Origin: an uncultured Christensenellaceae bacterium | GTDB taxonomy: Bacteria > Bacillota > Clostridia > Christensenellales > CAG-314 | NCBI GenBank assembly: GCA_910585195.1 | Contig: CAJUCX010000003.1 | Location: forward strand, 1,828 to 65,827 | DNA length: 64,000 bases | Direction of reading: 5' to 3' | In this document: positions 2,175-50,378 of the stretch, in pieces | Layout: every line of letters begins with the position of its first letter | Position numbering within the stretch: position 1 is the first letter of the stretch | The notes under the pieces: generated by a model | Told to the model about the DNA's origin: nothing | The model's input: only the letters and a program-made list of their open reading frames with translations | Database searches by the model: none | Program-made: the position numbers and the translations under genes

Positions 2175-4358
2175 ATGTCAGACTTATTACTCATCATCGT
2201 GGGTGCTGCCGTAATACTTGCTCTTTCTTATGCGTGCTTCAACTTCTTTATGGTAAAGAAAATGAAAGAAGGCACCGACAGAATGCAGGAAATTGCAGGC
2301 GCAATCCGCATAGGCGCAAATGCGTTTATCCGCTATGAATACAAAATTGTTGCGATAATAGGCGCGGTTGTTGCCGTAATACTCGGCGTGCTTATCAGTT
2401 GGCAGACGGGCGTTTCGTTTATCTTAGGTGCAACGCTGTCGGCAACCGCAGGCTTTGTAGGAATGAAAATCGCAACGTACAGCAACGTGCGCGTTGCAAA
2501 CCAAGCAAACGAAACCCGCGACCTAGGCAAAACGCTTAAAGTTGCGTTTAAGGGCGGTTCGGTAATGGGCTTGTGCGTTGCAGGCTTTGCGCTTTTGGGC
2601 ATAATTATCGTATACCTTGTGTTCGGCGTGGCATTGGGACAGATAAACGACGTAATCGAAGGAACGGTTCAAAACAGCATAATCTTCCCTGCACTTGAAA
2701 CGTCCTTTACTATGACGGTGTCGGGCTATGCGCTCGGCTGCTCGATAATTGCGTTGTTCAACCGCGTAGGCGGCGGCATTTATACAAAAGCCGCGGATAT
2801 GGGCGCAGACCTCGTAGGCAAAACCGAGGCGCACATACCTGAGGACGACCCGAGAAACCCTGCAACAATTGCAGACAACGTAGGCGACAACGTAGGCGAC
2901 GTTGCTGGACTTGGCAGCGACTTGTTGGAAAGCTACGTCGGCGCGATTATGTCTGGCGTAATTCTTGCGTGCGAAATGTTTTTGCACGGGCTTGCGATTT
3001 CTGCGGAATTGCTGCATACGCTGTTGCTCTTCCCTATCGTTTTTGCAGGCTGCGGACTTTTGAGTTGTATAATAGGCATCTCTTACATAGTGTTAAAGCG
3101 CAAACTGTCAAGCAACGTTCATATGGAACTTAACGTTGCAACGTGGATTTCCGCCGCAATGTCGGTCATCTTGTGTTTTGTGATAAGTTTCTTTATATTC
3201 AAAGACTTCCCACAGGAAGAACTTGGGTTGCTAGGTTTCAGACTCGGCAACATATCTCCGTTTTTAGCGGCAGTGTTTGGTATTGCGGCAGGTATTTTAA
3301 TAGGAATCGCGTCGGAATACTACACAAGCTATGACTATAAACCTACCAAAAAAATTGCAAACTCGTCAAAAGAAGGTCCTGCACTTACTATCACGCAAGG
3401 TCTTGCAACGGGTATGATAAGCTGTATGATACCTGTGGTTATCTTAGGTGTGGCAATATTCGGTTCTTACCTTGTTGCCGGAATGTACGGCGTTTCGTGT
3501 GCGGCGCTTGGTATGCTGTCTTTTGTTGCAGCAACCGTTGCTGTCGACACTTACGGACCTATCTCGGACAATGCCGGCGGCATTGCAGAAATGAGCAAAC
3601 TCGACCCGGAAGTAAGAGAAATTACAGACAAACTCGACAGCGTAGGCAACACCACTGCGGCAATAGGCAAAGGTTTTGCAATAGGCTCTGCGGCGCTTGC
3701 GGCACTGTCTCTTATGAACTCTTACCTTTATGCATTCGGCGGAGTTGACGCTCTCGGCAACATTTTGCTTAACATAGTAAATCCGCTTACTCTCGTAGGC
3801 GCACTGTTCGGCGCGGCATTGCCGTTCTTGTTCTCGGGCATGCTTATAGAAGCAGTTGCAAAAGCGGCGCGCAAAATGGTTGACGAAGTGCGCAGACAGT
3901 TTAACGAAATACCGGGGCTGCTTGCAGGCGAAGCAATGCCTGACTACAAAACTTGTATAGAAATTTCTTCTCAAGGCTCGCTTAAAGAAATGCGCTTCCC
4001 TTGCGTATTGGCAATACTCTTCCCTATCGTTTCGGGCTTTGTATTCGGCGCGCAATTTGTAGGCGGCTTGCTTATCGGCGCAACGATAACGGCAATTATG
4101 CTTGCGCTCTTCTGCGGAAACTCGGGCGGTGCTTGGGACAACGCAAAGAAATTTATTGAAAGCGGCGGCGTAATGGGACACGGCAAAGGCTCCCCTGCAC
4201 ACGACGCATCTATCGTCGGCGACACCGTAGGCGACCCGCTTAAAGACACCGTCGGCCCGTCCCTCGATATACTCATCAAAATTATGTCTACCATCTCTCT
4301 CATAGCGGTAGTAATTTTCAGCCAATATAACTTGTTTGGCGTTTTGGGTATTATTTAA
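2175..4358 (+). CDS. hppA: Membrane-integral H+/Na+-translocating pyrophosphatase
   Basis: Motifs GGGIYTKAADMGADLVGK, DNVGDNVGD, GNTTAAIGKGFAIGSAAL and DTVGDPLKDT in a polytopic protein. I moved the start to ATG 2175, which follows AGGAGA. Confidence 0.93.
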   Translation: MSDLLLIIVGAAVILALSYACFNFFMVKKMKEGTDRMQEIAGAIRIGANAFIRYEYKIVAIIGAVVAVILGVLISWQTGVSFILGATLSATAGFVGMKIATYSNVRVANQANETRDLGKTLKVAFKGGSVMGLCVAGFALLGIIIVYLVFGVALGQINDVIEGTVQNSIIFPALETSFTMTVSGYALGCSIIALFNRVGGGIYTKAADMGADLVGKTEAHIPEDDPRNPATIADNVGDNVGDVAGLGSDLLESYVGAIMSGVILACEMFLHGLAISAELLHTLLLFPIVFAGCGLLSCIIGISYIVLKRKLSSNVHMELNVATWISAAMSVILCFVISFFIFKDFPQEELGLLGFRLGNISPFLAAVFGIAAGILIGIASEYYTSYDYKPTKKIANSSKEGPALTITQGLATGMISCMIPVVILGVAIFGSYLVAGMYGVSCAALGMLSFVAATVAVDTYGPISDNAGGIAEMSKLDPEVREITDKLDSVGNTTAAIGKGFAIGSAALAALSLMNSYLYAFGGVDALGNILLNIVNPLTLVGALFGAALPFLFSGMLIEAVAKAARKMVDEVRRQFNEIPGLLAGEAMPDYKTCIEISSQGSLKEMRFPCVLAILFPIVSGFVFGAQFVGGLLIGATITAIMLALFCGNSGGAWDNAKKFIESGGVMGHGKGSPAHDASIVGDTVGDPLKDTVGPSLDILIKIMSTISLIAVVIFSQYNLFGVLGII

Positions 4359-4409
4359 TAATATTTCACCTAACGGTTATTTTACTTTTACTCAACGACT
4401 TAACAAAAT

Positions 4410-4567: not shown

Positions 4568-4810
4568 TTACGGCACTTGAATATACACGCCGTCTATAAG
4601 TTGATAAACCGCCTGCAACTCTATTTTTTGCTGCTGCAAAATTTGTCTTGCCTGCGTTGTTTTGTCTTCCGCAATACACAACAGCAAACCGCAGCCCGCC
4701 CTTATTGCATTTGGCACGGGACGCACCTTGACGGAAATATTCTGCTCTTGCAATGCCTGTTCTGCCGCGATGACGGCGGAAGTGTTTGGAAAGGTAAAAA
4801 AATATTCCAT
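4568..4810 (-). CDS. DUF3343-like small protein (putative Se/S carrier family)
   Basis: 80 aa. The pattern YFFTF..A..AE..L....I.V...P.P..I...CGL is typical of DUF3343 proteins. It is tightly linked to yedF. Confidence 0.7.
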   Translation of the reverse strand: MEYFFTFPNTSAVIAAEQALQEQNISVKVRPVPNAIRAGCGLLLCIAEDKTTQARQILQQQKIELQAVYQLIDGVYIQVP

Positions 4811-4812
4811 AA

Positions 4813-5427
4813 TTAAATATTGATTACCTTTTGAGCGCCGCTCATGGCTTCTACAATGTCGTACATATTGCAGATTTCCCCTACGGAAACTTGGTCTTTA
4901 ACTTTGAAGTAGTCTGCGCAAGTGCCGCAAATGCGTATTTTGGTGCCGCGTTCTTCCATAACTTTAATATCTGCCAGAGTGTTGGCGTCTTTTAACGTAA
5001 GTTTAACGCCGCTGTTGAAAAATACGACTGCCTTTGGCGGAACTTCCAACTGCGAAAGAGAAAAGATAAAACCTTTTATAAGTATCTTGCCGAGTTCTTC
5101 GCTGCCGTGCCCCATTTGGTTTTGACTTATGGCAACAACCAAACCGTTGCCCGACGGCGCCGAAACCGTTGTTTGTTGGCTAACTTCAACTTCCTGCGCC
5201 TGACCTGCGCCAACCGTGATAGTAACCGCATAGTCCTTGTCGGCGCGTTTTACTACGTCGCACTTGTAACCTTTGCTTGCCGACATTTTGCTTAAATTGT
5301 CGCAGGCAATTTGGTTGTCTACAAGCACTTGCACTGCGCCGCCTTCCTGCGGAAACTTTGCAATTACTTTTTTTGCTTCGATAACTGGTCTGGGACAAAC
5401 CCAACCCATTGCGTCGATAATTTCCAT
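4813..5427 (-). CDS. yedF: YedF-type selenium metabolism protein (TusA/SirA-like N-terminus plus DsrE-like C-terminus)
   Basis: 204 aa. N-terminal CPRP motif (GWVCPRPVIEAKK) as in TusA/SirA. An AGAGG ribosome-binding site precedes the ATG. Confidence 0.8.
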   Translation of the reverse strand: MEIIDAMGWVCPRPVIEAKKVIAKFPQEGGAVQVLVDNQIACDNLSKMSASKGYKCDVVKRADKDYAVTITVGAGQAQEVEVSQQTTVSAPSGNGLVVAISQNQMGHGSEELGKILIKGFIFSLSQLEVPPKAVVFFNSGVKLTLKDANTLADIKVMEERGTKIRICGTCADYFKVKDQVSVGEICNMYDIVEAMSGAQKVINI

Positions 5428-5429
5428 AA

Positions 5430-6593
5430 CTATTTACCTCTTTTTAATAAAATTCGTTTTATACCGCGGACGGCCGTGTCGACTTCTTCCTGCTTGTTGA
5501 AGTGGGAAAAGGAAAATCTGACCGCTCCCGTCCGTTGCGTACCCAAAGTTTTGTGCATAAGCGGCGCACAATGCGCTCCTGCCCTTACTGCAATACCGTA
5601 TTCCTGCCAAAGCATATCCGCCGCGTCGCCGCTGTCAATTCCGTCAAGATTAAGCGCAACGACAGGCGTCCTTACCGAGGCGCCGACGTCGCCGTAAAGA
5701 GTAACGCCGTCAATACATTCGACTTGTTTTATAAAATTTCTTGCTAATATATCGGCGTCGTCAAACAGACTAGAACTATTGTTTTGCTTGTTTGCTTTGC
5801 CTGTAAATATTTTTTCGTTAAACTTCTCTACGTAAGTTATGCCAGCAAGCAAACCCGCTATGCCGTGTGCGTTTTGCGTGCCTGCCTCCAAAGCATCGGG
5901 CATTAAATCGGGGTGCGTGGGAGAAAACGATTCGCTGCCGCTGCCGCCTATAACGAGCGGCTGCGGTTTGAAGTCTTGTCCCAAGCAAATACCTCCCGTG
6001 CCCTGCGGTCCGTAAAGCGATTTATGCCCGGAAAAGCACAGCGCCGATATATTTGCTTTTTGCATATCTATTGCAAGCAAGCCGGCAGTCTGCGCACAGT
6101 CTGCAATAAACCTTACGCCCTCTTTTTTGCAGATTTCGCCTATGGCATAAATATCGTAAACGTTGCCGACAAGGTTTGACGCGTGGCAAGTAACCACCGC
6201 TTCGGTTTCGCTTGTGATGGCGTCTTGCAACTTATTTAAGTCCAGTCTGCCTAGTTTGTCGTTTTGCACCACGGTAAAATTGCCGTGTCTATACACAGGG
6301 CGCAATACGCTGTTGTGCTCTGCGCAGGTGGTAACAATGTTTCCTTTAACGGAAGATATGGCAATATTAAGCGCGGCGGTTGCATTTTGAGTAAACGCCA
6401 CGTCCATTGCGTTTTTGACGTTAAACAACTTTGCAACGGCAAAACGCGCTTTCATAAGCGTACGCAAACCGTTAAGCGACGCGTCATAAGACCCGCGCGA
6501 CGGGTTTCCGCAAGTGTTAAGAGCGTTTGCGATTTCTTCCGCCACCTGCGGCGGCTTTGGCATTGTCGTTGCGGCGTTGTCAAAATATATCAT
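5430..6593 (-). CDS. Class V aminotransferase: cysteine desulfurase / selenocysteine lyase family
   Basis: 387 aa. FSGHKSLYGPQGTG is the PLP-lysine region, and HCAPL near the C-terminus holds the catalytic Cys region. It ends 2 nt before the yedF start. Confidence 0.85.
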   Translation of the reverse strand: MIYFDNAATTMPKPPQVAEEIANALNTCGNPSRGSYDASLNGLRTLMKARFAVAKLFNVKNAMDVAFTQNATAALNIAISSVKGNIVTTCAEHNSVLRPVYRHGNFTVVQNDKLGRLDLNKLQDAITSETEAVVTCHASNLVGNVYDIYAIGEICKKEGVRFIADCAQTAGLLAIDMQKANISALCFSGHKSLYGPQGTGGICLGQDFKPQPLVIGGSGSESFSPTHPDLMPDALEAGTQNAHGIAGLLAGITYVEKFNEKIFTGKANKQNNSSSLFDDADILARNFIKQVECIDGVTLYGDVGASVRTPVVALNLDGIDSGDAADMLWQEYGIAVRAGAHCAPLMHKTLGTQRTGAVRFSFSHFNKQEEVDTAVRGIKRILLKRGK

Positions 6594-6693: not shown

Positions 6694-8073
6694 ATGAATA
6701 AATTGCGTTCTATGCCGCGCGTAGACGACGTGCTGTCGTTGGTGCAGGCAGAGCAAAAAACACAAAACATCTCTTATGCGGAACTGTTAAACTGCGTGCG
6801 CGAAACTTTGGACAAAACACGCAAAGACGTATTGTCTGGCAAACTCGAACAAGTGCCGCCTATTAAAGAAATCGTACGCGAAGTCGTAAGAATGGCGGTA
6901 AAACAATGCAGCGGCAGTTTGCGCCCCGTCATAAATGCCACCGGCGTAGTTTTGCACACAAACTTGGGCAGAGCCGTGCTTGCGGAAGCCGCGGCGGAAA
7001 ACGTAAAGCAAGTAGCAAGGCAATACAACACTTTGGAGTATGATTTGGAAGCAGGAGAGCGCGGCAGCAGACACAGCCACGTTGAAAAGCTTATTTGCAA
7101 ACTTACCGGTGCAGAGGCGGCAATGGCGGTAAACAACAACGCCGCAGCCGTAATGCTTATGCTTGCGAGCATATGTAAAGATAAGGAAGTAGTAGTTTCG
7201 CGCGGAGAACTCGTTGAAATCGGCGGTTCCTTCCGCGTGCCGGAAATTATGAGTATGAGCGGCGCAACGCTTAAAGAAATAGGCACCACCAACAAGACGC
7301 ACGCCGACGATTATCGCAAAGCGATAAACGAAAACACGGCGGCATTATTGAAAGTACACACAAGCAACTTTAAGATTGTAGGGTTTTCGCAATCAATCGG
7401 CATAGAAGAACTTTCTCAAATAGGCAAAGAAACAGGCGTGCCCGTGCTTTACGACGTAGGCAGCGGTCTTATGGTTGACAACGCTCTCGTAAACATCGCC
7501 GACGAACTTTGCGTAAAAGAATGCATAAAAGGCGGCGCCGACGTGGTATGTTTCAGCGCCGACAAGCTTTTGGGCGGTCCGCAGGCAGGTATCCTTGCAG
7601 GCAAAAAAGAATATATCGACAAAATGAAAAAAAATCAATTTGCAAGAGTCGTTCGTATCGACAAGTTGAATCTTGCCGCGTTGGAGTCCACTTTGCGCAT
7701 TTATCTTGACGAGGAACGCGCCTTTAAGGAAATACCTACCCTTGCAAACCTTGCGGTAAGTAAATCCGACTTGCGCATAAAGGCAACCAAACTGCAAAGT
7801 ATGCTGCCCGAGCGCAAAAAAGACTTTACTTCCGTCATCAAAGCAGCAGAGTCGCAAGTAGGCGGCGGCTCCGCACCTGGAGAACTTTTGCCGTCTTTCG
7901 CAGTGCAGATAACGCCCGTTTCCATATCCGCCGCGGAAATGGAAAAGCGCCTGAGAGAATATGAAACTCCTATCATCTGCCGCATAAGGCAGGATAAGGT
8001 TTTGCTTGACCCGCGCACCATCTTTGAAAATCAATTTGAAGAAATTGCAAAGGCGTTTAACGAAATATTTTAA
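6694..8073 (+). CDS. selA: L-seryl-tRNA(Sec) selenium transferase
   Basis: 459 aa. FSADKLLGGPQAG is the PLP-lysine motif characteristic of SelA. N-terminal MPRVDDVL-type start. Confidence 0.93.
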   Translation: MNKLRSMPRVDDVLSLVQAEQKTQNISYAELLNCVRETLDKTRKDVLSGKLEQVPPIKEIVREVVRMAVKQCSGSLRPVINATGVVLHTNLGRAVLAEAAAENVKQVARQYNTLEYDLEAGERGSRHSHVEKLICKLTGAEAAMAVNNNAAAVMLMLASICKDKEVVVSRGELVEIGGSFRVPEIMSMSGATLKEIGTTNKTHADDYRKAINENTAALLKVHTSNFKIVGFSQSIGIEELSQIGKETGVPVLYDVGSGLMVDNALVNIADELCVKECIKGGADVVCFSADKLLGGPQAGILAGKKEYIDKMKKNQFARVVRIDKLNLAALESTLRIYLDEERAFKEIPTLANLAVSKSDLRIKATKLQSMLPERKKDFTSVIKAAESQVGGGSAPGELLPSFAVQITPVSISAAEMEKRLREYETPIICRIRQDKVLLDPRTIFENQFEEIAKAFNEIF

Positions 8074-8100
8074 CAGCAACTAAAATAAGTAATAAAAAAA

Positions 8101-8132
8101 CAGGCTGCCGCCTTGAAAAATACGGCAGCCTG
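8101..8132. terminator. 10-bp-stem hairpin after selA
   Basis: CAGGCTGCCG-12 nt-CGGCAGCCTG. The uridine-rich tail is on the minus-strand side (A7 precedes the hairpin on plus), so the hairpin is canonical only for minus-strand transcription. Confidence 0.5.
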
Positions 8133-8174
8133 TGCTAAAATAATTTAGGTCGGGGAAGTTCGCCCCGTTTATAT

Positions 8175-8264
8175 GGGACCGGATAGGTGCTGGTGTGCCT
8201 TTCGGGCAACCGATATGGGAAGTTTTACTGCCTGGGTGAGTTCGATTCTCACACGGTCCCGCCA
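8175..8264 (+). tRNA. tRNA-like gene at the expected selC position; Sec-type scaffold, anticodon not resolved
   Basis: GGGACCG(G) pairs with (A)CGGTCCC, followed by G-CCA. The T-arm is GTGAG-TTCGATT-CTCAC. The D-arm AGGTGC-TGGT-GTGCCT has a 6-bp stem and 4-nt loop. The central 35 nt contain no TCA and no 7-nt anticodon loop that I can fold. Confidence 0.5.
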
Positions 8265-8309
8265 TTTTCAAAAATGATAGGAGTTGATAATTTTATTGCT
8301 CCCGACATA

Positions 8310-8338
8310 GAACCGATAAGTAAAAAATCGGTTCTTTT
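8310..8338 (+). terminator. Terminator downstream of the tRNA-like gene
   Basis: GAACCGAT-9 nt-ATCGGTTC followed by TTTT. Confidence 0.65.
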
Positions 8339-8394
8339 ATATAATATGCATTAAAAAGCAAAAGTGCTCTGCAATGCTTTTTTAAGGAGGACGT

Positions 8395-9423
8395 ATGGAC
8401 GCAAACAAAATTATGAAATTGCCTGCTTGCGGCGGTTGTATGGCAAAATTGCCACCGGGTATGCTTAAAGACGTGGTGTCGCAAATACCGACTTTTAACG
8501 ACAAAAATCTGCTTGTGGGTTTTGACACTTCCGACGACGGCGCGGTATATAAATTAAGCGACGACATTGCAATAATACAGACGCTGGACTTTTTTACCCC
8601 TATGGTCGACGACCCTTATGTTTTCGGTAAAATTGCAGCTACAAACGCTTTGAGCGACATTTACGCTATGGGCGGAGAAGTAAAAGTTGCATTAAACATC
8701 GTATGCTTTCCTGAAGAAGACGACCCTGCAATGTTGGCGTCCATTTTGAAAGGCGGCGCTGAAAAGGTTTTGGAAGCGGGCGGCGTGCTTTGCGGCGGAC
8801 ACTCCATAAACGACAAAGAATGCAAATACGGTCTGTCGGTAACCGGCACCGTGCACCCGAACAAATATCTGCGCAACAACACCTGCAAAAAAGGCGATTT
8901 AATCGTGCTTACCAAGCCTTTGGGCGTAGGTATGATAATGGCGTCTTACCGCTACGGCGAAGTTGCGGAAGACGACTATCAAACGGCGCTTAAAAGTATG
9001 CAGACATTAAATAAATACGCCTTTGAGGCGGCAAGCAAATTTGATTTGCACGCAGGCACAGACGTAACGGGCTTCGGCTTTTTGGGGCACTTAAACGAAA
9101 TGGTAGACGACGGCTACTCTATTGCAGTAAACGGCAACGACGTAAAATACATAAAAGGCGCAATGCATTTGGCGGAAGAATTTTTAACCACCGGCGGCGG
9201 ACAAAAAAACCGCAACTTTTTGGGCGACAAAGTAAAGTTCAACAACGTACCTCGCCCTGTGCAGGAAATTTTGCTTGACCCGCAAACCAGCGGCGGTTTG
9301 CTGTTGAGCTTGCCTCCTAAGGACGCCAAAGAACTTATGAAAGTGCTTGCCGACTTTGAAATGCCGTCGTGCATAATAGGCGAAGTAACCGACAGAAAAG
9401 AAAGCAATATTATTGTTTATTGA
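8395..9423 (+). CDS. selD: Selenide, water dikinase (Cys-type)
   Basis: 342 aa. N-terminal KLPACGGCMAKLPPG, then GGHSI and DVTGFG, fitting the AIR-synthase-like SelD layout. AAGGAGG precedes the ATG. Confidence 0.93.
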   Translation: MDANKIMKLPACGGCMAKLPPGMLKDVVSQIPTFNDKNLLVGFDTSDDGAVYKLSDDIAIIQTLDFFTPMVDDPYVFGKIAATNALSDIYAMGGEVKVALNIVCFPEEDDPAMLASILKGGAEKVLEAGGVLCGGHSINDKECKYGLSVTGTVHPNKYLRNNTCKKGDLIVLTKPLGVGMIMASYRYGEVAEDDYQTALKSMQTLNKYAFEAASKFDLHAGTDVTGFGFLGHLNEMVDDGYSIAVNGNDVKYIKGAMHLAEEFLTTGGGQKNRNFLGDKVKFNNVPRPVQEILLDPQTSGGLLLSLPPKDAKELMKVLADFEMPSCIIGEVTDRKESNIIVY

Positions 9424-10634: not shown

Positions 10635-12632
10635 TCAGAACGAATACGGTATTGAAGTTGCCGTGTTTGCAACGGTAATTATTGTAAACAACAATGCATT
10701 TATCATAGCGCCGAGCCAAATGTTGCCGGTCTTTTTGTAAAGCACGCGCGAGATGATTGTTGCAATTGCAAGCACTGCCACCATAGGGAATACTACGATA
10801 TAGCCAAGCGCCATGTCTTTTTGCCACAATACGCCGGTTGAACGGAAAGTGATGTATTGAATAAGAATTACCAACAATATACCGAATGAGTTGAAGAATG
10901 CATTTATTGCAATCGTTGCCCATTCAGGCAAGTCTTTCAAACGGAAGCCCGCATTGCCCATTGCGCTGATTGCGTAGAAGATAAAGAATACCCAACTGTA
11001 TCTGAACATTGTAGGTATCATATTGAGGTTGAATACTTTTACGTCGAGCGTCCAGATACGGAAGTCGACAGTCCAAATGCCCCAGTTGATAAATACCACT
11101 GCATACAGCAGACCCACAACCAACAATGTAAGCAAAGCAGTTTTTACAAAACTTATAAGGTCAATCTTAGCGCACCTAAACGGATTGCCGACCGCAACTT
11201 CCTCTTTGCCGAGTTTCTTTGCAAGTTTACCAACGCCGAAGTTGATTGCCCATACAACAAGCATTACAAACAATGCAAAGCCTGCGCAAACGAGCGCCCA
11301 GTTTGCAACGCTGCCCGTTGTATCCTGAGGGAAATAATCGCTAGGGCTAATCATGCCTTTGCCTGCATAAGTTGTGTAAGCCTTTCTGAATATAAACCCG
11401 CCGAACAACATTGTAGCCACGCCGCCTGCAAAATATGTAACAGTCTTTGTTATGCCGTGCAAACCGCCCTTTTTGATTGAACCCAAACCAACGTCCAAAT
11501 CGAGTTCTTCCGTTTTGCGCAAAGACGCAAAGCAAGGAAGAGTCAACAACAAAGACACTACAGGGAAGATAAGGAAGAAGAATGCCGCCAAGCCGATAAG
11601 CGAGAACATTTCTTTTACCCACCAAATTTGGTTGCCGCTGCCGATAACGCCGTTGTTTGCAGGCGTGCCGAATGCCGAATAGAAGAAGTCTACAACATAA
11701 CCTGCGCTTTCAACCGAGAAGTGGTTGAGCGGGTGAATTTCGTTTGCTTCGTAAATTACACGGAAAGGCTGACCTACTGCCGTGCCTTGTTCTACTTCTT
11801 GAATTGCACCGTTTACGTAAGGTTTGCCGAAAGTTAAATTGATTGCATTGCCTGCCGTATACGCCTTATTATTTAAGAATGACCATGCCGCTTGCGATTT
11901 GATATATTCTCTGCAAATTGTAGCATTACCTGTCTCGTCTTTGCTCGCAAAGAAGAATTCATCGTCCATTGCTTTAAGTACGCCTACAGATTTATTGCCG
12001 TAAGGATTTGGATTTAGCGCGTTTGGCACACTAGGATTATATCCTTGAATAAGACCGGCTGCAATGATATTTATTCCTTTTGCATCGGTTGACAAAACAC
12101 TGCTTGTAGTCATACCTCCCATAGAGTGCCCAGAAATACCTATGCGCGCTTTGTCGACGTACGGCAAATTGTAAAGATATTTTGCACTGTCATACATACC
12201 ACTCGTATTCATTATTGCGCCATATGGTGAACCTGCAATAACATCTTCATCAGTATTGTGTCCGTGTCCGCCGCGGTCTATTGTCAAAACGACAAATCCG
12301 CGTCTTGCAAGCTCTATTGCGTTTTGAAGTTGCAACTCTCTGTTGTTGAGATAGCCGTGCGTCAAAACAATGGCAGGTGCAGGATTTTTTTCCGTAGCGG
12401 TGTTAGGCACAAACAAAATACCGCTTGCAACTTTACCTTGCACTTTTGTTTCTGTCGGGTTGCCGTTTGCGTCATACAGCACACCGCTGTTGGTTTCGTT
12501 TCGTAAATCCGTTACAGACGACTTATAGCCCGCCGACTGTACCATAGACGCGAAGAAACTGCTTACAAGAATGACCGCCAACGCTATTGCAAGCATAAGC
12601 AGAGATTTCTTGTTCTTTCTTAAATACTCCAT
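10635..12632 (-). CDS. Membrane protein with an N-terminal alpha/beta-hydrolase domain and a polytopic C-terminal domain
   Basis: 665 aa. N-terminal TM segment, GHSMGG nucleophile elbow (GxSxG), then at least 8 hydrophobic helices. AGGAGG ribosome-binding site. Substrate unknown. Confidence 0.6.
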   Translation of the reverse strand: MEYLRKNKKSLLMLAIALAVILVSSFFASMVQSAGYKSSVTDLRNETNSGVLYDANGNPTETKVQGKVASGILFVPNTATEKNPAPAIVLTHGYLNNRELQLQNAIELARRGFVVLTIDRGGHGHNTDEDVIAGSPYGAIMNTSGMYDSAKYLYNLPYVDKARIGISGHSMGGMTTSSVLSTDAKGINIIAAGLIQGYNPSVPNALNPNPYGNKSVGVLKAMDDEFFFASKDETGNATICREYIKSQAAWSFLNNKAYTAGNAINLTFGKPYVNGAIQEVEQGTAVGQPFRVIYEANEIHPLNHFSVESAGYVVDFFYSAFGTPANNGVIGSGNQIWWVKEMFSLIGLAAFFFLIFPVVSLLLTLPCFASLRKTEELDLDVGLGSIKKGGLHGITKTVTYFAGGVATMLFGGFIFRKAYTTYAGKGMISPSDYFPQDTTGSVANWALVCAGFALFVMLVVWAINFGVGKLAKKLGKEEVAVGNPFRCAKIDLISFVKTALLTLLVVGLLYAVVFINWGIWTVDFRIWTLDVKVFNLNMIPTMFRYSWVFFIFYAISAMGNAGFRLKDLPEWATIAINAFFNSFGILLVILIQYITFRSTGVLWQKDMALGYIVVFPMVAVLAIATIISRVLYKKTGNIWLGAMINALLFTIITVANTATSIPYSF

Positions 12633-47571: not shown

Positions 47572-48675
47572 TTACACTATGCGTACCGGAAGTATGAGAT
47601 ACAAATATTCTTCTTTGTCGCAAGGGGTTATTACGCAAGGGTTTACCGGCGTGTTTAGGTTTATCTTTATAAACTCGTCGTCAACCGCCTTCATACAATC
47701 CAACAAATAACGGGAGTTAAAGGCAATGGTCATATCTTTGCCTACCAAATTTATTGCGATGCTTTCCTTCAAATTTGCGCCGTCGTCGCTGTTGGAAATT
47801 AAATTTACTACGTTTTCTTTAATATCGAGTTTTACGAGGTTGTTTTTTTCCAAACGGGAAAGTATGCTTGCTCTGTCGAGACTGTTTTTGAATTGGTCTT
47901 TATTTATAATTACGTTGGTATCGAAATCGGTAGGTATGATTTGCTTATAGTTTATGAAATCACCCGAAAGCAAGCGGGTCATTATCATAGTATGTTCCAA
48001 ATCTACCATAAGGAAGTTGTTTTCTACTTTAACATGTATTATATCGTCGCTGTCGTCCAAAAACTTGTTAAGTTCGTTAAGACTGCGCGCAGGTACTATT
48101 ACGCTCATCTTTTCCGCTTTTTGTTCCAAAGGTTTGTTTACCATAGCAAGACGGTAACCGTCAAGAGCAACCGCACTTATTTTGTAATCTTCCGCCTCAA
48201 ACAAACAACCTTTAAGCGTAGGCCTGCCTTCGTCCACAGAAACGGAAAATATGGTTTTTGTTATTAAATCTTTAAGTTCTTTGGAAAGTATAACAAAACC
48301 TTTTGCCGATTCTATCCTTTCGAGTTCCGGATATTCTTCCACAGGGAAGCATTTCTTTTCTACTTCGCCGTCGGTGTATTTTATTTTAAGTTTCTGACTG
48401 TCGTCCAAAGAAAGTTCTATTTGCTCGTTGGTAAGCATTTTTACAAGCTCGCCGAAAAATTTGCCCGGCACGACGGTTTCGCCTTCGACCAAAACTTCCG
48501 CATTTATTTTCTTTTCTATCGCAAGTTCCAAATCTGTGGCAAACAACGTAAGACAATCGTCTTTTGCCGTAAGTTTAATACCTTCCAAAATAGGAGAAAC
48601 GTTTTTGCTGTTTAAGGCTTTTGTTACTTTAATTACGGCGTCGCTGAGTTCTACGCCCTGACAGATAAGTTTCAT
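47572..48675 (-). CDS. dnaN: DNA polymerase III beta sliding clamp
   Basis: 367 aa, three-domain clamp. MKLICQ...L...V.K....K...PIL.GI.L start and a LILPVRI-type C-terminus. AAGGAG ribosome-binding site. Confidence 0.95.
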   Translation of the reverse strand: MKLICQGVELSDAVIKVTKALNSKNVSPILEGIKLTAKDDCLTLFATDLELAIEKKINAEVLVEGETVVPGKFFGELVKMLTNEQIELSLDDSQKLKIKYTDGEVEKKCFPVEEYPELERIESAKGFVILSKELKDLITKTIFSVSVDEGRPTLKGCLFEAEDYKISAVALDGYRLAMVNKPLEQKAEKMSVIVPARSLNELNKFLDDSDDIIHVKVENNFLMVDLEHTMIMTRLLSGDFINYKQIIPTDFDTNVIINKDQFKNSLDRASILSRLEKNNLVKLDIKENVVNLISNSDDGANLKESIAINLVGKDMTIAFNSRYLLDCMKAVDDEFIKINLNTPVNPCVITPCDKEEYLYLILPVRIV

Positions 48676-49043: not shown

Positions 49044-50378
49044 ATGGACGTCAGAGAATTGTGGCAAAAAATGCTGGACGAACTTGAAACGACACTTCCG
49101 GCTTTGGGTTTCGACACATTGGTTGAAACAACCGTGCCTGTAAGTATAACAGACGGCAAACTTATACTTTGCACAAACAGCGAAGTAAGCAAAAGTCTTG
49201 TTCAAAAAAGGTTTGCACAACAAATAAGACTGGCTATGCAAATGGTGCTGCCTATGCTTGACGACGTAGAATTTATTACGGAAGCGCAAAAAGATTTATA
49301 TATAAATAAAGAAGAAGTTTTAAGACCGGTCTGCCACAATTTTGAAGAAACGGTATTTATAAAGAAATATACGTTCGACAATTTCGTAGTAGGCAAATCC
49401 AACGAGTTTGTAGCCGCTGCTGCAAGGGCCGTATCGGAAGCACCCGGCAAAAAATTCAATCCGTTGTTTATATACGGCGGAGTGGGACTCGGCAAAACGC
49501 ACTTACTGCACGCAATAGGCAATCATTTAATGAAAAGCAAGCCTAAATTCAAGACGCTGTACGTAAGTTGCGAAAAATTTACCAACGAACTTATAGAAGC
49601 CATAAGAGACACCAACGAAGCAAAAAAAGCGTTTAGAGAAAAGTACCGCAGTTGCGACGTGCTTATGATTGACGACATTCAGTTTGTATCCAAAACCGAC
49701 GCCACCCAGGAAGAATTGTTTCATACTTTCAACGACCTTTACAGCGCGGAAAAGCAAATTATCATAAGCAGCGACCGCCCACCGAAAGAAATTCAGCATT
49801 TGGAGGACAGATTGCGCACGCGTTTTGCGTGGGGTATGATTGCCGACATAAAACCGCCTGATTTAGAAACGAGAATTGCCATTTTGCAAAAAAAGGCAAG
49901 CGAGCAAAACGCAAACGTAAGCAACGACATATTAAAGGTTATTGCAAACAACGTGCAGACCAACATAAGAGATATGGAAGGTTTGCTTACTAGGGTTATA
50001 AGTTACGCATCGCTTATAAACCACTCGGTAATAGATATGGACGTTGTTAAAGAAGCGTTAAAAGACTACACCGACGATCAAAAGGAAATGATTTCCGTAG
50101 ACAATATTATAGACGCCGTTACGGAGTATTTCAGCATAGATAAAGAGGCGTTGGTAGGCAAAAAGAAAAATAAAGAAATTGTAGAACCGCGTCAGATATG
50201 TATATATCTCATCACAGAGTTTTTGACTTTGCCGTTGGTTAAAATAGGAGAAGTCTTCGGCGGAAGAGATCATACAACCATATTGCACGCGCGCAATAAA
50301 ATAGAAGAGCAGTGTAAAACGGACGGCAGAATTTCCGTATACGTAAAAGATTTGAAGGATATGCTCCTTAAAAAATAA
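49044..50378 (+). CDS. dnaA: Chromosomal replication initiator DnaA
   Basis: 444 aa. GGVGLGKTHLLHAIG Walker A and a C-terminal DNA-binding domain (GGRDHTTILHARNKI). Confidence 0.97.
   Translation: MDVRELWQKMLDELETTLPALGFDTLVETTVPVSITDGKLILCTNSEVSKSLVQKRFAQQIRLAMQMVLPMLDDVEFITEAQKDLYINKEEVLRPVCHNFEETVFIKKYTFDNFVVGKSNEFVAAAARAVSEAPGKKFNPLFIYGGVGLGKTHLLHAIGNHLMKSKPKFKTLYVSCEKFTNELIEAIRDTNEAKKAFREKYRSCDVLMIDDIQFVSKTDATQEELFHTFNDLYSAEKQIIISSDRPPKEIQHLEDRLRTRFAWGMIADIKPPDLETRIAILQKKASEQNANVSNDILKVIANNVQTNIRDMEGLLTRVISYASLINHSVIDMDVVKEALKDYTDDQKEMISVDNIIDAVTEYFSIDKEALVGKKKNKEIVEPRQICIYLITEFLTLPLVKIGEVFGGRDHTTILHARNKIEEQCKTDGRISVYVKDLKDMLLKK

Follow-up and report, generated by a model that had tools for sequence, protein, structure and literature searches.

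Selenocysteine tRNA (tRNA-Sec), the product of selC, is defined by its decoding job. Two of the enzymes that handle it recognize other parts of the molecule: seryl-tRNA synthetase (SerRS) reads the variable arm and the discriminator G73 and ignores the anticodon, and the N-terminal domain of the selenocysteine synthase SelA reads the D-arm, with its long stem and 4-nt loop (PMC7609411). A bulge in the D-stem is a reported trait of tRNA-Sec in Clostridiales (PMC5330540). Departures from the canonical system have been described in both partners. Cravedi et al. (2015; PMC4607533) reported that the N-terminal tRNA-binding domain has been lost from the SelA of Helicobacter pylori, along with selC from the genome. 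The allo-tRNAs and the selC* tRNA-Cys have 8/4 or 9/3 acceptor/T branches together with normal 7-nt loops, and act in translation (Mukai et al., 2017; PMC5389517).

Here, we analyse a 64-kb window (the whole stretch of DNA studied, 64,000 nt of contig CAJUCX010000003.1) from an uncultured Christensenellaceae bacterium. It contains a 90-nt element on the forward strand (8175-8264) that occupies the selC position, flanked by selA and selD. A first-pass annotation had described this element as a tRNA-Sec-like scaffold without a readable UCA anticodon loop, and had offered a mis-folded selC, a decayed selC or a tRNA-Sec-like RNA without a decoding function as explanations; our results support the last of these. 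We favour, with a probability of roughly 0.55, a non-decoding, anticodon-less tRNA-Sec derivative that has been retained as the RNA substrate or partner of SelA after the loss of selB from the locus. Its conservation together with SelA in uncultured Clostridia suggests that this tRNA has a role in selenium biology outside protein synthesis.

A tRNA-Sec body without an anticodon loop

The element reads GGGACCG-G-AU-AGGUGC-UGGU-GUGCCU-U-UCGG-GCAA-CCGA-UAU-GGGAAG-UUUUA-CUGCCU-GG-GUGAG-UUCGAUU-CUCAC-A-CGGUCCC-G-CCA, which agrees with the acceptor stem, AT linker, D-arm, T-arm and G-CCA end recognized by eye in the first pass. The tRNA-Sec hallmarks seen there are borne out by the Rfam model RF01852, which aligns with the element from end to end (model positions 1-91) at 48.0 bits, a narrow pass of the gathering threshold of 47 (E = 1.5e-6 in the whole window and 1.2e-8 in a local search). 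In this alignment, six of the seven anticodon-loop positions are deleted. Our own covariance model (R1), which was built from four members and retrieved and aligned eight distinct family sequences, scores the element at 97.9 bits. The minimum free energy (MFE) fold is a cloverleaf (-36 kcal/mol, z = -2.0) with UCGG-GCAA-CCGA as its middle hairpin; this mini-hairpin had already been noticed in the sequence and is also the middle arm in the Rfam alignment. The anticodon arm is reduced to a 4-bp stem (plus a U-A pair) capped by the GNRA tetraloop GCAA. As had been claimed, TCA is absent from 8201-8235 on reading of the sequence, and the covariance-model alignment places no 7-nt anticodon loop; the 6-bp anticodon stem, U33 and UCA of tRNA-Sec are lacking as well. 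ARAGORN left the element uncalled, and its sole call in the window is an unrelated tRNA-Arg.

The rest of the tRNA-Sec body is present. The discriminator G8261 is followed by an encoded CCA (8262-8264), and the features that give SerRS identity (long variable arm, G73 and CCA) occur in the element and in all family members. The element also has the 6-bp D-stem and 4-nt D-loop that serve as the SelA determinant, and an extended acceptor/T helix composed of seven Watson-Crick pairs plus a G.A and a 5-bp T-stem. By reading of the sequence, the same inner G.A occurs in the tRNA-Sec of a canonical relative (L023).

An ordinary selC mis-folded by eye, or an assembly artefact, can be considered refuted. 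The general resemblance to tRNA-Sec is all that such an explanation has on its side. The covariance-model alignment shows the loop to be deleted, and six further lineages carry short arms that differ from each other; the loops of the family range from 3 to 8 nt and share no common triplet (GCAA, CAUUAC, CUUG, UUUUAAAC, AUCUU and UUU(UA)). The element is moreover identical (90/90 nt) in six other independent assemblies from different samples (L032-L037), and assembly error is therefore excluded. Among the seven assemblies, which represent the species-level population of the window, the 90 nt are invariant; in 232 nt of flanking sequence 6 sites vary, and the differences in selA and selD amount to 1.5-3%.

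Covariation was evaluated on the covariance-model alignment; MAFFT misaligned the short arm and the 5' ends. All 224 pair cells of the eight distinct members hold standard pairs, a count that is biased upward since the alignment had been made to fit the structure of the model. Double changes are seen at ten pairs, which belong to the acceptor, D, anticodon-remnant and T helices. Column shuffles gave a covariation score of 0.224, compared with 0.495 for the family, and none of 500 shuffles reached the observed value; in slid controls, with the partner moved by 1-3 columns, the score was 0.03-0.14. The seven acceptor pairs are kept in all eight members, with pair 5 changing from CG to UA or AU and one-sided changes at pairs 4 and 6. 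Compensatory changes affect three of the six D-stem pairs and three of the five T-stem pairs, and two-sided changes affect three of the five pairs of the anticodon-remnant stem. The D-loop, the T-loop, G73 and CCA are unchanged across the family. The conservation of the helices at orthologous loci, which the first-pass annotation had proposed to examine, is thus found for all of them; its alternative pairing of 8202-8208 with 8229-8235 does not hold, as the homologs support the cloverleaf, in which 8217-8233 is the variable arm. The closest relative of the window is L013 (SelA 87% identical). At a synonymous divergence (dS) of SelA of about 1, the RNAs of these two loci differ only in two loops and at two structure-preserving stem positions.

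A normal tRNA-Sec is most conserved in its anticodon arm, whereas this family is least conserved there and maintains no more than the presence of a hairpin. On the relatives' RNAs, ARAGORN returned either nothing or contradictory anticodons (atta, tct and tac); we take these misses and contradictions as evidence for a missing anticodon, and not as calls. Taken across the family, the comparison demonstrates a selC derivative that is selected for its tRNA-Sec body and has no decoding loop.

The loss of the anticodon loop and its drifting length could also be expected from non-functional leftovers, in which the RNA and selA have been decaying slowly since decoding was lost. A lineage without the RNA beside selA (L020, discussed below) and the loss of yedE-tusA-DUF3343 from the window lineage would fit such a scenario. 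It is largely refuted and we regard it as very improbable: five helices are fully paired in eight diverged members with ten compensatory pairs, there is no variation in D-loop, T-loop, G73 or CCA, promoter and terminator are still present, and SelA keeps all its catalytic motifs intact with a ratio of non-synonymous to synonymous substitution rates (dN/dS, or omega) of about 0.1 at a dS of about 1. Broken helices, a lost discriminator or CCA, and a neutral pattern of change, by which a pseudogene would be recognized, are not found in the element. The suggestion of a decayed selC was therefore right concerning descent and the loss of the loop, and wrong concerning decay, since the helices covary and SelA is under purifying selection.

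Two candidate anticodons were considered and rejected. The variable arm has a 7-nt loop in relatives (UUAGGAG in all of them) and could be mistaken for the true anticodon arm; in the window, and only there, this loop has 5 nt (UUUUA), and the arm follows the hairpin on its 3' side and is joined to the T-arm by a connector of only 2 nt. For the 8-nt loop UUUUAAAC of L029, read as containing a UUA anticodon, no register yields a 7-nt loop with a stem of at least 5 bp.

Descent from selC and absence of selB from the locus

The loci compared form a graded series of SelA homologs from uncultured Bacillota/Clostridia assemblies. Loci without selB (L013-L019, L021, L022, L024, L029 and L032-L037) encode SelAs 60-100% identical to that of the window and have the order selA, tRNA-Sec-like gene, (yedE-tusA-DUF3343-)selD(-nifS). 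In canonical loci (L023, L030, L031 and L038; SelA 59-61% identical), a glycine-reductase (grd) operon is followed by selA-selB. Downstream of selB lie one UCA tRNA-Sec gene in L023 and two each in L030 and L031, and ARAGORN reports tRNA-SeC with anticodon tca in all three loci; L038 ends 168 nt past selB, with the selC region outside that contig. The selC copies of L030 are followed by yedE-tusA-DUF3343-selD-nifS, the same block as in the clade without selB. Because its locus has the gene order of the canonical loci minus selB, the element is, by synteny, the positional ortholog of selC, and selB has been excised from the locus in this lineage. On RF01852, the relatives' RNAs score 33.9-51.7 bits, versus 70.8-77.2 bits for the canonical tRNA-Sec genes (70.8 bits for the UCA gene of L023). 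Neighbour joining places the SelAs encoded by loci without selB, window included, in a monophyletic group in 371 of 500 bootstraps (74%), which is consistent with a single loss of selB.

Neither annotation nor tblastn with SelB revealed selB or a remnant of it in the 64-kb window, and tblastn found no remnant in any locus carrying the RNA; the search covered the window and 8-14 kb around selA in the relatives. Covariance-model searches detected no second tRNA-Sec match in the window or in the clade loci, and no grd operon or other split-UGA genes stand beside selA in the clade without selB. These results bear on the possibility that the genomes still decode selenocysteine with a selB and a normal selC located elsewhere, the element being a diverged spare from a tandem duplication. 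A spare copy was available, as two tandem selC copies exist in the canonical L030 and L031, and the search for selB was confined to the window and the surroundings of selA. However, the place from which selB is missing is, in every clade member, precisely the interval between selA and the RNA, the loci show neither a second tRNA-Sec match nor, unlike the canonical relatives, grd or split-UGA genes beside selA, and the proposal requires the relocation of selB together with one selC, for which deletion is the more parsimonious account. We consider it improbable.

The tandem UCA tRNA-Sec genes of the canonical loci are near-identical (11329-11426 and 11557-11654 in L030; 11336-11433 and 11549-11646 in L031). 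In these loci, grdA was called as split open reading frames (ORFs) in L023, L030 and L031, and grdB likewise in L030 and L031 (L023 1151-1621; L030 1838-3151 and 4592-5056; L031 1812-3116 and 4584-5048), as expected from their UGA selenocysteine codons.

Beyond this series, a scan of a genome collection with SelA peptides returned relatives only 39-46% identical, from Synergistaceae, Chloroflexi and Verrucomicrobia. A DNA-pattern scan of metagenomes yielded one true family member (L024), which resembles L017. The matches in L025-L027 have no tRNA-Sec-like RNA at the matched site and look like chance; L025 separately has a canonical tRNA-Sec about 1.8 kb from its match. The match in L028 sits at a contig end.

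SelA, selenium metabolism and a leader motif in relatives

The SelA of the window aligns with the Aquifex SelA structures (3W1H; E = 1.8e-115). The pyridoxal phosphate lysine and arginine motifs (FSxDKLLGGPQAG, NLGRA and RxxRIDK) are kept in this protein and in all clade members, and the N-terminal domain is present, with an LRxxPRVD motif conserved in the clade. dN/dS values of 0.08-0.13 within the clade at a dS of about 1 (0.082 between the window and L013) are indistinguishable from that of the canonical pair L030/L031 (0.093), and the N-terminal domain has an omega of 0.14-0.29 in the clade versus 0.245 in canonical relatives. Judged by these rates, SelA is under purifying selection.

We thus have an RNA that descends from selC and has lost its anticodon loop, a locus without selB, and selection acting on both the RNA fold and SelA. 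With its anticodon arm shrunk to a short capped hairpin, the RNA could not read a codon, and selenocysteine decoding would have been lost together with selB. The worry that selA might lack its substrate in cis should probably be reversed, as the features recognized by SerRS and SelA are those that have been kept: on the SerRS side G1-C72, G2-C71 and G3-C70 in addition to the long variable arm, G73 and CCA, and on the SelA side the T-loop in addition to the 6-bp D-stem and 4-nt D-loop. We propose that the RNA would be serylated by SerRS, and that SelA would convert the seryl-RNA, using selenophosphate from the adjacent SelD, into a selenocysteinyl-RNA that would never reach the ribosome. The RNA could in this way act as a dedicated carrier or partner of SelA in a non-translational selenium metabolism, either as an off-ribosome source of selenocysteine or activated selenium, or as a reporter of selenium supply through its acylation state. 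The conserved cluster covers uptake (YedE), trafficking (TusA-like, DUF3343 and YedF), mobilisation (NifS-like) and activation (SelD). Since its sole visible consumer of selenophosphate is SelA, the acylated RNA would be the product or the read-out of the pathway.

Several points weigh against this interpretation. It is the determinants that are seen in the RNA, and from them we infer its charging and conversion. A user of the selenocysteinyl-RNA is not visible in the conserved neighbourhood. In one clade member, L020 (SelA 67% identical), yedE follows selA after 84 bp (4287-4371), and no tRNA-Sec-like RNA, CUCCUAA leader or selB was detected within about 10 kb; the RNA may be located elsewhere, or SelA may persist without it, and this locus implies that SelA can persist without an adjacent copy. 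The upward bias of the pair counts and the extent of the selB search, both given above, belong on the same side.

Further information comes from the relatives that carry the yedE operon. In all seven distinct ones, the variable loop and the first stem base form the invariant sequence UUAGGAGC, to which the variable loops of the canonical tRNA-Sec relatives are unrelated. The complement, (G)CUCCUA(A), is found in one to three copies between the RNA terminator and yedE in each of the six leaders, a 143-fold enrichment compared with the rest of the loci (Fisher p = 1.6e-17), and none of 20,000 shuffles put the motif in all six. Each leader could form an 8-bp duplex with the loop, at -11.5 to -12 kcal/mol, which is matched by 0-2% of shuffled leaders. 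In the folded modules of L016, L017 and L029, the motif lies in the 3'-side internal loop of a hairpin, and the stems of the two modules each of L016 and L017 differ in sequence yet stay complementary. No Rfam family matched the leader of L017 (7560-7945), the sole leader scanned, and no published account of the motif was found in the searchable literature, which covers few subscription journals. The window has neither the yedE-tusA-DUF3343 block nor its leader nor the AGGAG loop; the trailer of its RNA (8265-8394), compared with the L013 leader in an attempt to map the deletion, shows no homology to it. The co-loss of leader and loop is a single event and fits an interaction between the two in the relatives.

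It could therefore be asked whether the main job of the RNA is regulatory, with the variable loop acting in trans on the leader of yedE-tusA-DUF3343-selD-nifS, and SelA and SerRS setting its state, so that it would be a sensor and not a supplier. The invariance of the loop, the enrichment of its complement, the rarely matched duplexes, the display of the motif in internal loops and the joint absence of leader and loop from the window all speak for such a role, which we nevertheless hold to be possible but doubtful. In the window the proposed target is missing, although RNA body and SelA remain conserved there; pairing between loop and leader is consequently not the whole function. The loop is invariant among leader-bearing members, leaving no loop-leader covariation to be read, the motif resembles an anti-Shine-Dalgarno sequence and could work purely in cis, and reading of the leaders, with no systematic search for it, revealed no T-box-like UGGC element. 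A more specific and rather unlikely version would make SelA and the anticodon-less tRNA-Sec a selenium-status sensor, a T-box-like riboregulator that uses its variable loop instead of an anticodon. The RNA would be constitutively serylated, its conversion by SelA would require available selenophosphate, and repeated specifier-like internal loops, GCUCCUAA, of the yedE-tusA-DUF3343-selD-nifS leader would read its free or bound state through base-pairing with UUAGGAGC. Such a riboregulator would have been made from the remains of the selenocysteine-decoding machinery.

Layout of the locus and comparison with known systems

Table 1. Positions of the features discussed, in the window unless a related locus is named
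Feature	Position	Strand	Evidence
selA, 459 aa, intact	6694..8073	+	TIGR00474, 601 bits
selD, 342 aa, uninterrupted ORF without in-frame UGA	8395..9423	+	TIGR00476, 371 bits; dN/dS 0.03-0.14
Divergent selenium-trafficking trio: Se/S carrier (4568-4810), YedF (4813-5427), NifS/SclA-like class-V aminotransferase (5430-6593)	4568..6593	-	Profile matches
Mature tRNA-Sec-like RNA, 90 nt, encoded G73-CCA	8175..8264	+	RF01852, R1, MFE fold; identical in 7 assemblies
Acceptor stem, 5' strand GGGACCG, pairs with CGGTCCC (8254-8260); G8182.A8253 is a non-Watson-Crick eighth position	8175..8181	+	Family pairing
D-arm: 6-bp stem AGGUGC/GUGCCU including 2 G.U, 4-nt loop UGGU	8185..8200	+	Compensatory changes
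Anticodon-arm remnant: U8201-A8215, UCGG (8202-8205), GCAA tetraloop (8206-8209), CCGA (8210-8213), U8214 bulged	8201..8215	+	Rfam alignment, covariation
Variable arm GGGAAG-UUUUA-CUGCCU, 17 nt, one A.G mismatch	8217..8233	+	Stem kept in all members
T-arm GUGAG-UUCGAUU-CUCAC	8236..8252	+	Covariation; invariant loop
Predicted sigma-70-type promoter: TTGAAA (8113-8118), 17-nt spacer, TGcTAAAAT (to 8141)	8113..8141	+	10/12 consensus positions, TG extension
5'-leader hairpin CGGGG-AAGUUCG-CCCCG, between promoter and mature 5' end	8151..8167	+	Sequence reading
Intrinsic terminator of the tRNA-like gene	8309..8341	+	Stem 8309-8317/8327-8335, U tract; -10.9 kcal/mol, z = -3.35
yedE leaders with 1-3 hairpin modules	L016 7645-7800; L017 7640-7790; L021 7680-7780; L022 7790-7930; L029 4050-4180; L013 8205-8232		

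The tRNA-like gene appears to be an independent transcription unit (Table 1). The promoter proposed in the first-pass annotation, TTAGGT-17-TTTATA, abuts the mature 5' end; the predicted promoter listed here is a better candidate and is conserved in L013, which has TTGAAA-17-TATAAT (7710-7741; 84% identity over 32 nt). The leader hairpin is presumably removed along with the leader by RNase P. The terminator, which had been correctly recognized, is found at the same place in every relative.

Other hairpins surround the gene. At 8093-8133, 3' of the selA stop codon, an A7 run precedes an 11-bp hairpin (ACAGGCUGCCG...CGGCAGCCUGU) whose loop holds the -35 box of the tRNA-like gene's promoter and which, on the minus strand, would read as an intrinsic terminator; L013 has a similar sequence with partly complementary arms (7700-7730). 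In the spacer between the RNA and selD, a small hairpin at 8277-8305 pairs AGGAG(U) with (U)GCUCC, and a second one with a U run (8360-8392) directly precedes the selD Shine-Dalgarno sequence; both may be attenuator-like elements.

The trafficking trio upstream of selA is shared with L013-L019, L021, L022, L029 and L033; for L032 and L034-L037, gene calling gave only YedF-like (TusA-domain) and Aminotran_5 genes at this site. The window, which carries Spo0A, dnaA and gyrBA, comes from near oriC in the chromosome of a spore-forming member of the Clostridia. Its origin region has an unusual arrangement: a dnaN homolog (47572-48675, minus strand) lies divergently upstream of dnaA-recF-gyrB-gyrA (dnaA side 49044-50378, plus strand), and the usual site of dnaN is downstream, with the genes co-oriented.

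No description of an anticodon-less tRNA-Sec was found in the searchable literature, from which most subscription journals are absent. The closest known RNA is bacterial tRNA-Sec itself, in the 7/5 form of Clostridiales (RF01852). The element resembles it in its site downstream of selA, the 7-bp acceptor stem plus G.A, the 5-bp T-stem, the 6-bp D-stem with UGGU loop, the long variable arm, G73 and the encoded CCA, and the RNAs of L021 and L022 have the D-stem bulge of Clostridiales tRNA-Sec (PMC5330540). The family differs by having neither a 7-nt loop nor a UCA, an anticodon stem shortened from 6 to 4-5 bp, a locus without selB, and RF01852 scores of 34-52 bits against 71-77 bits for canonical genes in the same searches. 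The annotation of such genomes calls for caution: selA, selC and selD would be scored as present in organisms that probably cannot insert selenocysteine.

RNAs that can be aminoacylated and are non-decoders or unusual decoders include the tRNA-like domain of transfer-messenger RNA (tmRNA), the cell-wall tRNA-Gly of Staphylococcus and the tRNA-Other of Bacillus cereus (see also PMC5389517). In these too, the tRNA body is kept for a synthetase or another partner and use by the ribosome is lost or avoided, and alanyl-tRNA synthetase on tmRNA parallels SerRS in that neither requires an anticodon. Cell-wall tRNAs retain anticodon loops, and to our knowledge none of the three derives from tRNA-Sec and works with a tRNA-dependent enzyme that converts amino acids. 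As in T-box leaders, a 3'-side internal loop in the relatives' leader presents a short stretch complementary to one of the loops of a tRNA-shaped RNA. It differs from them in that the candidate pairing involves the variable loop and not the anticodon, in its two or three repeated modules, in the lack of a leader in the window, and in that no T-box sequence or NCCA-pairing bulge was identified, by reading and with no systematic search, in the relatives' leaders.

Allo-tRNAs and the selC* tRNA-Cys are likewise tRNA-Sec-like bodies that are not tRNA-Sec, in Clostridia and other bacteria (PMC5389517). The element does not belong to their class: its branches are 7(+1)/5, with a 5-bp T-stem, and a 7-nt anticodon loop is missing.

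In the lineage described here, the parts needed for decoding are gone (the anticodon loop from the RNA and selB from the locus), and the tRNA body and selenocysteine synthase are under strong selection. Should the RNA still be charged and converted, tRNA-dependent synthesis of selenocysteine would here, for the first time in a natural system, be uncoupled from translation, in a pathway that either makes selenocysteine or activated selenium for another use or measures selenium supply. The element would then reveal, as a minimal substrate provided by nature, the actual requirements of SerRS and SelA. The orphan SelA of Helicobacter pylori is a parallel case of a selA reported to have remained under selection after the loss of decoding (PMC4607533). 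The element and its SelA form a contrast to it, as here the N-terminal domain is under canonical-like constraint and the RNA partner has been kept.

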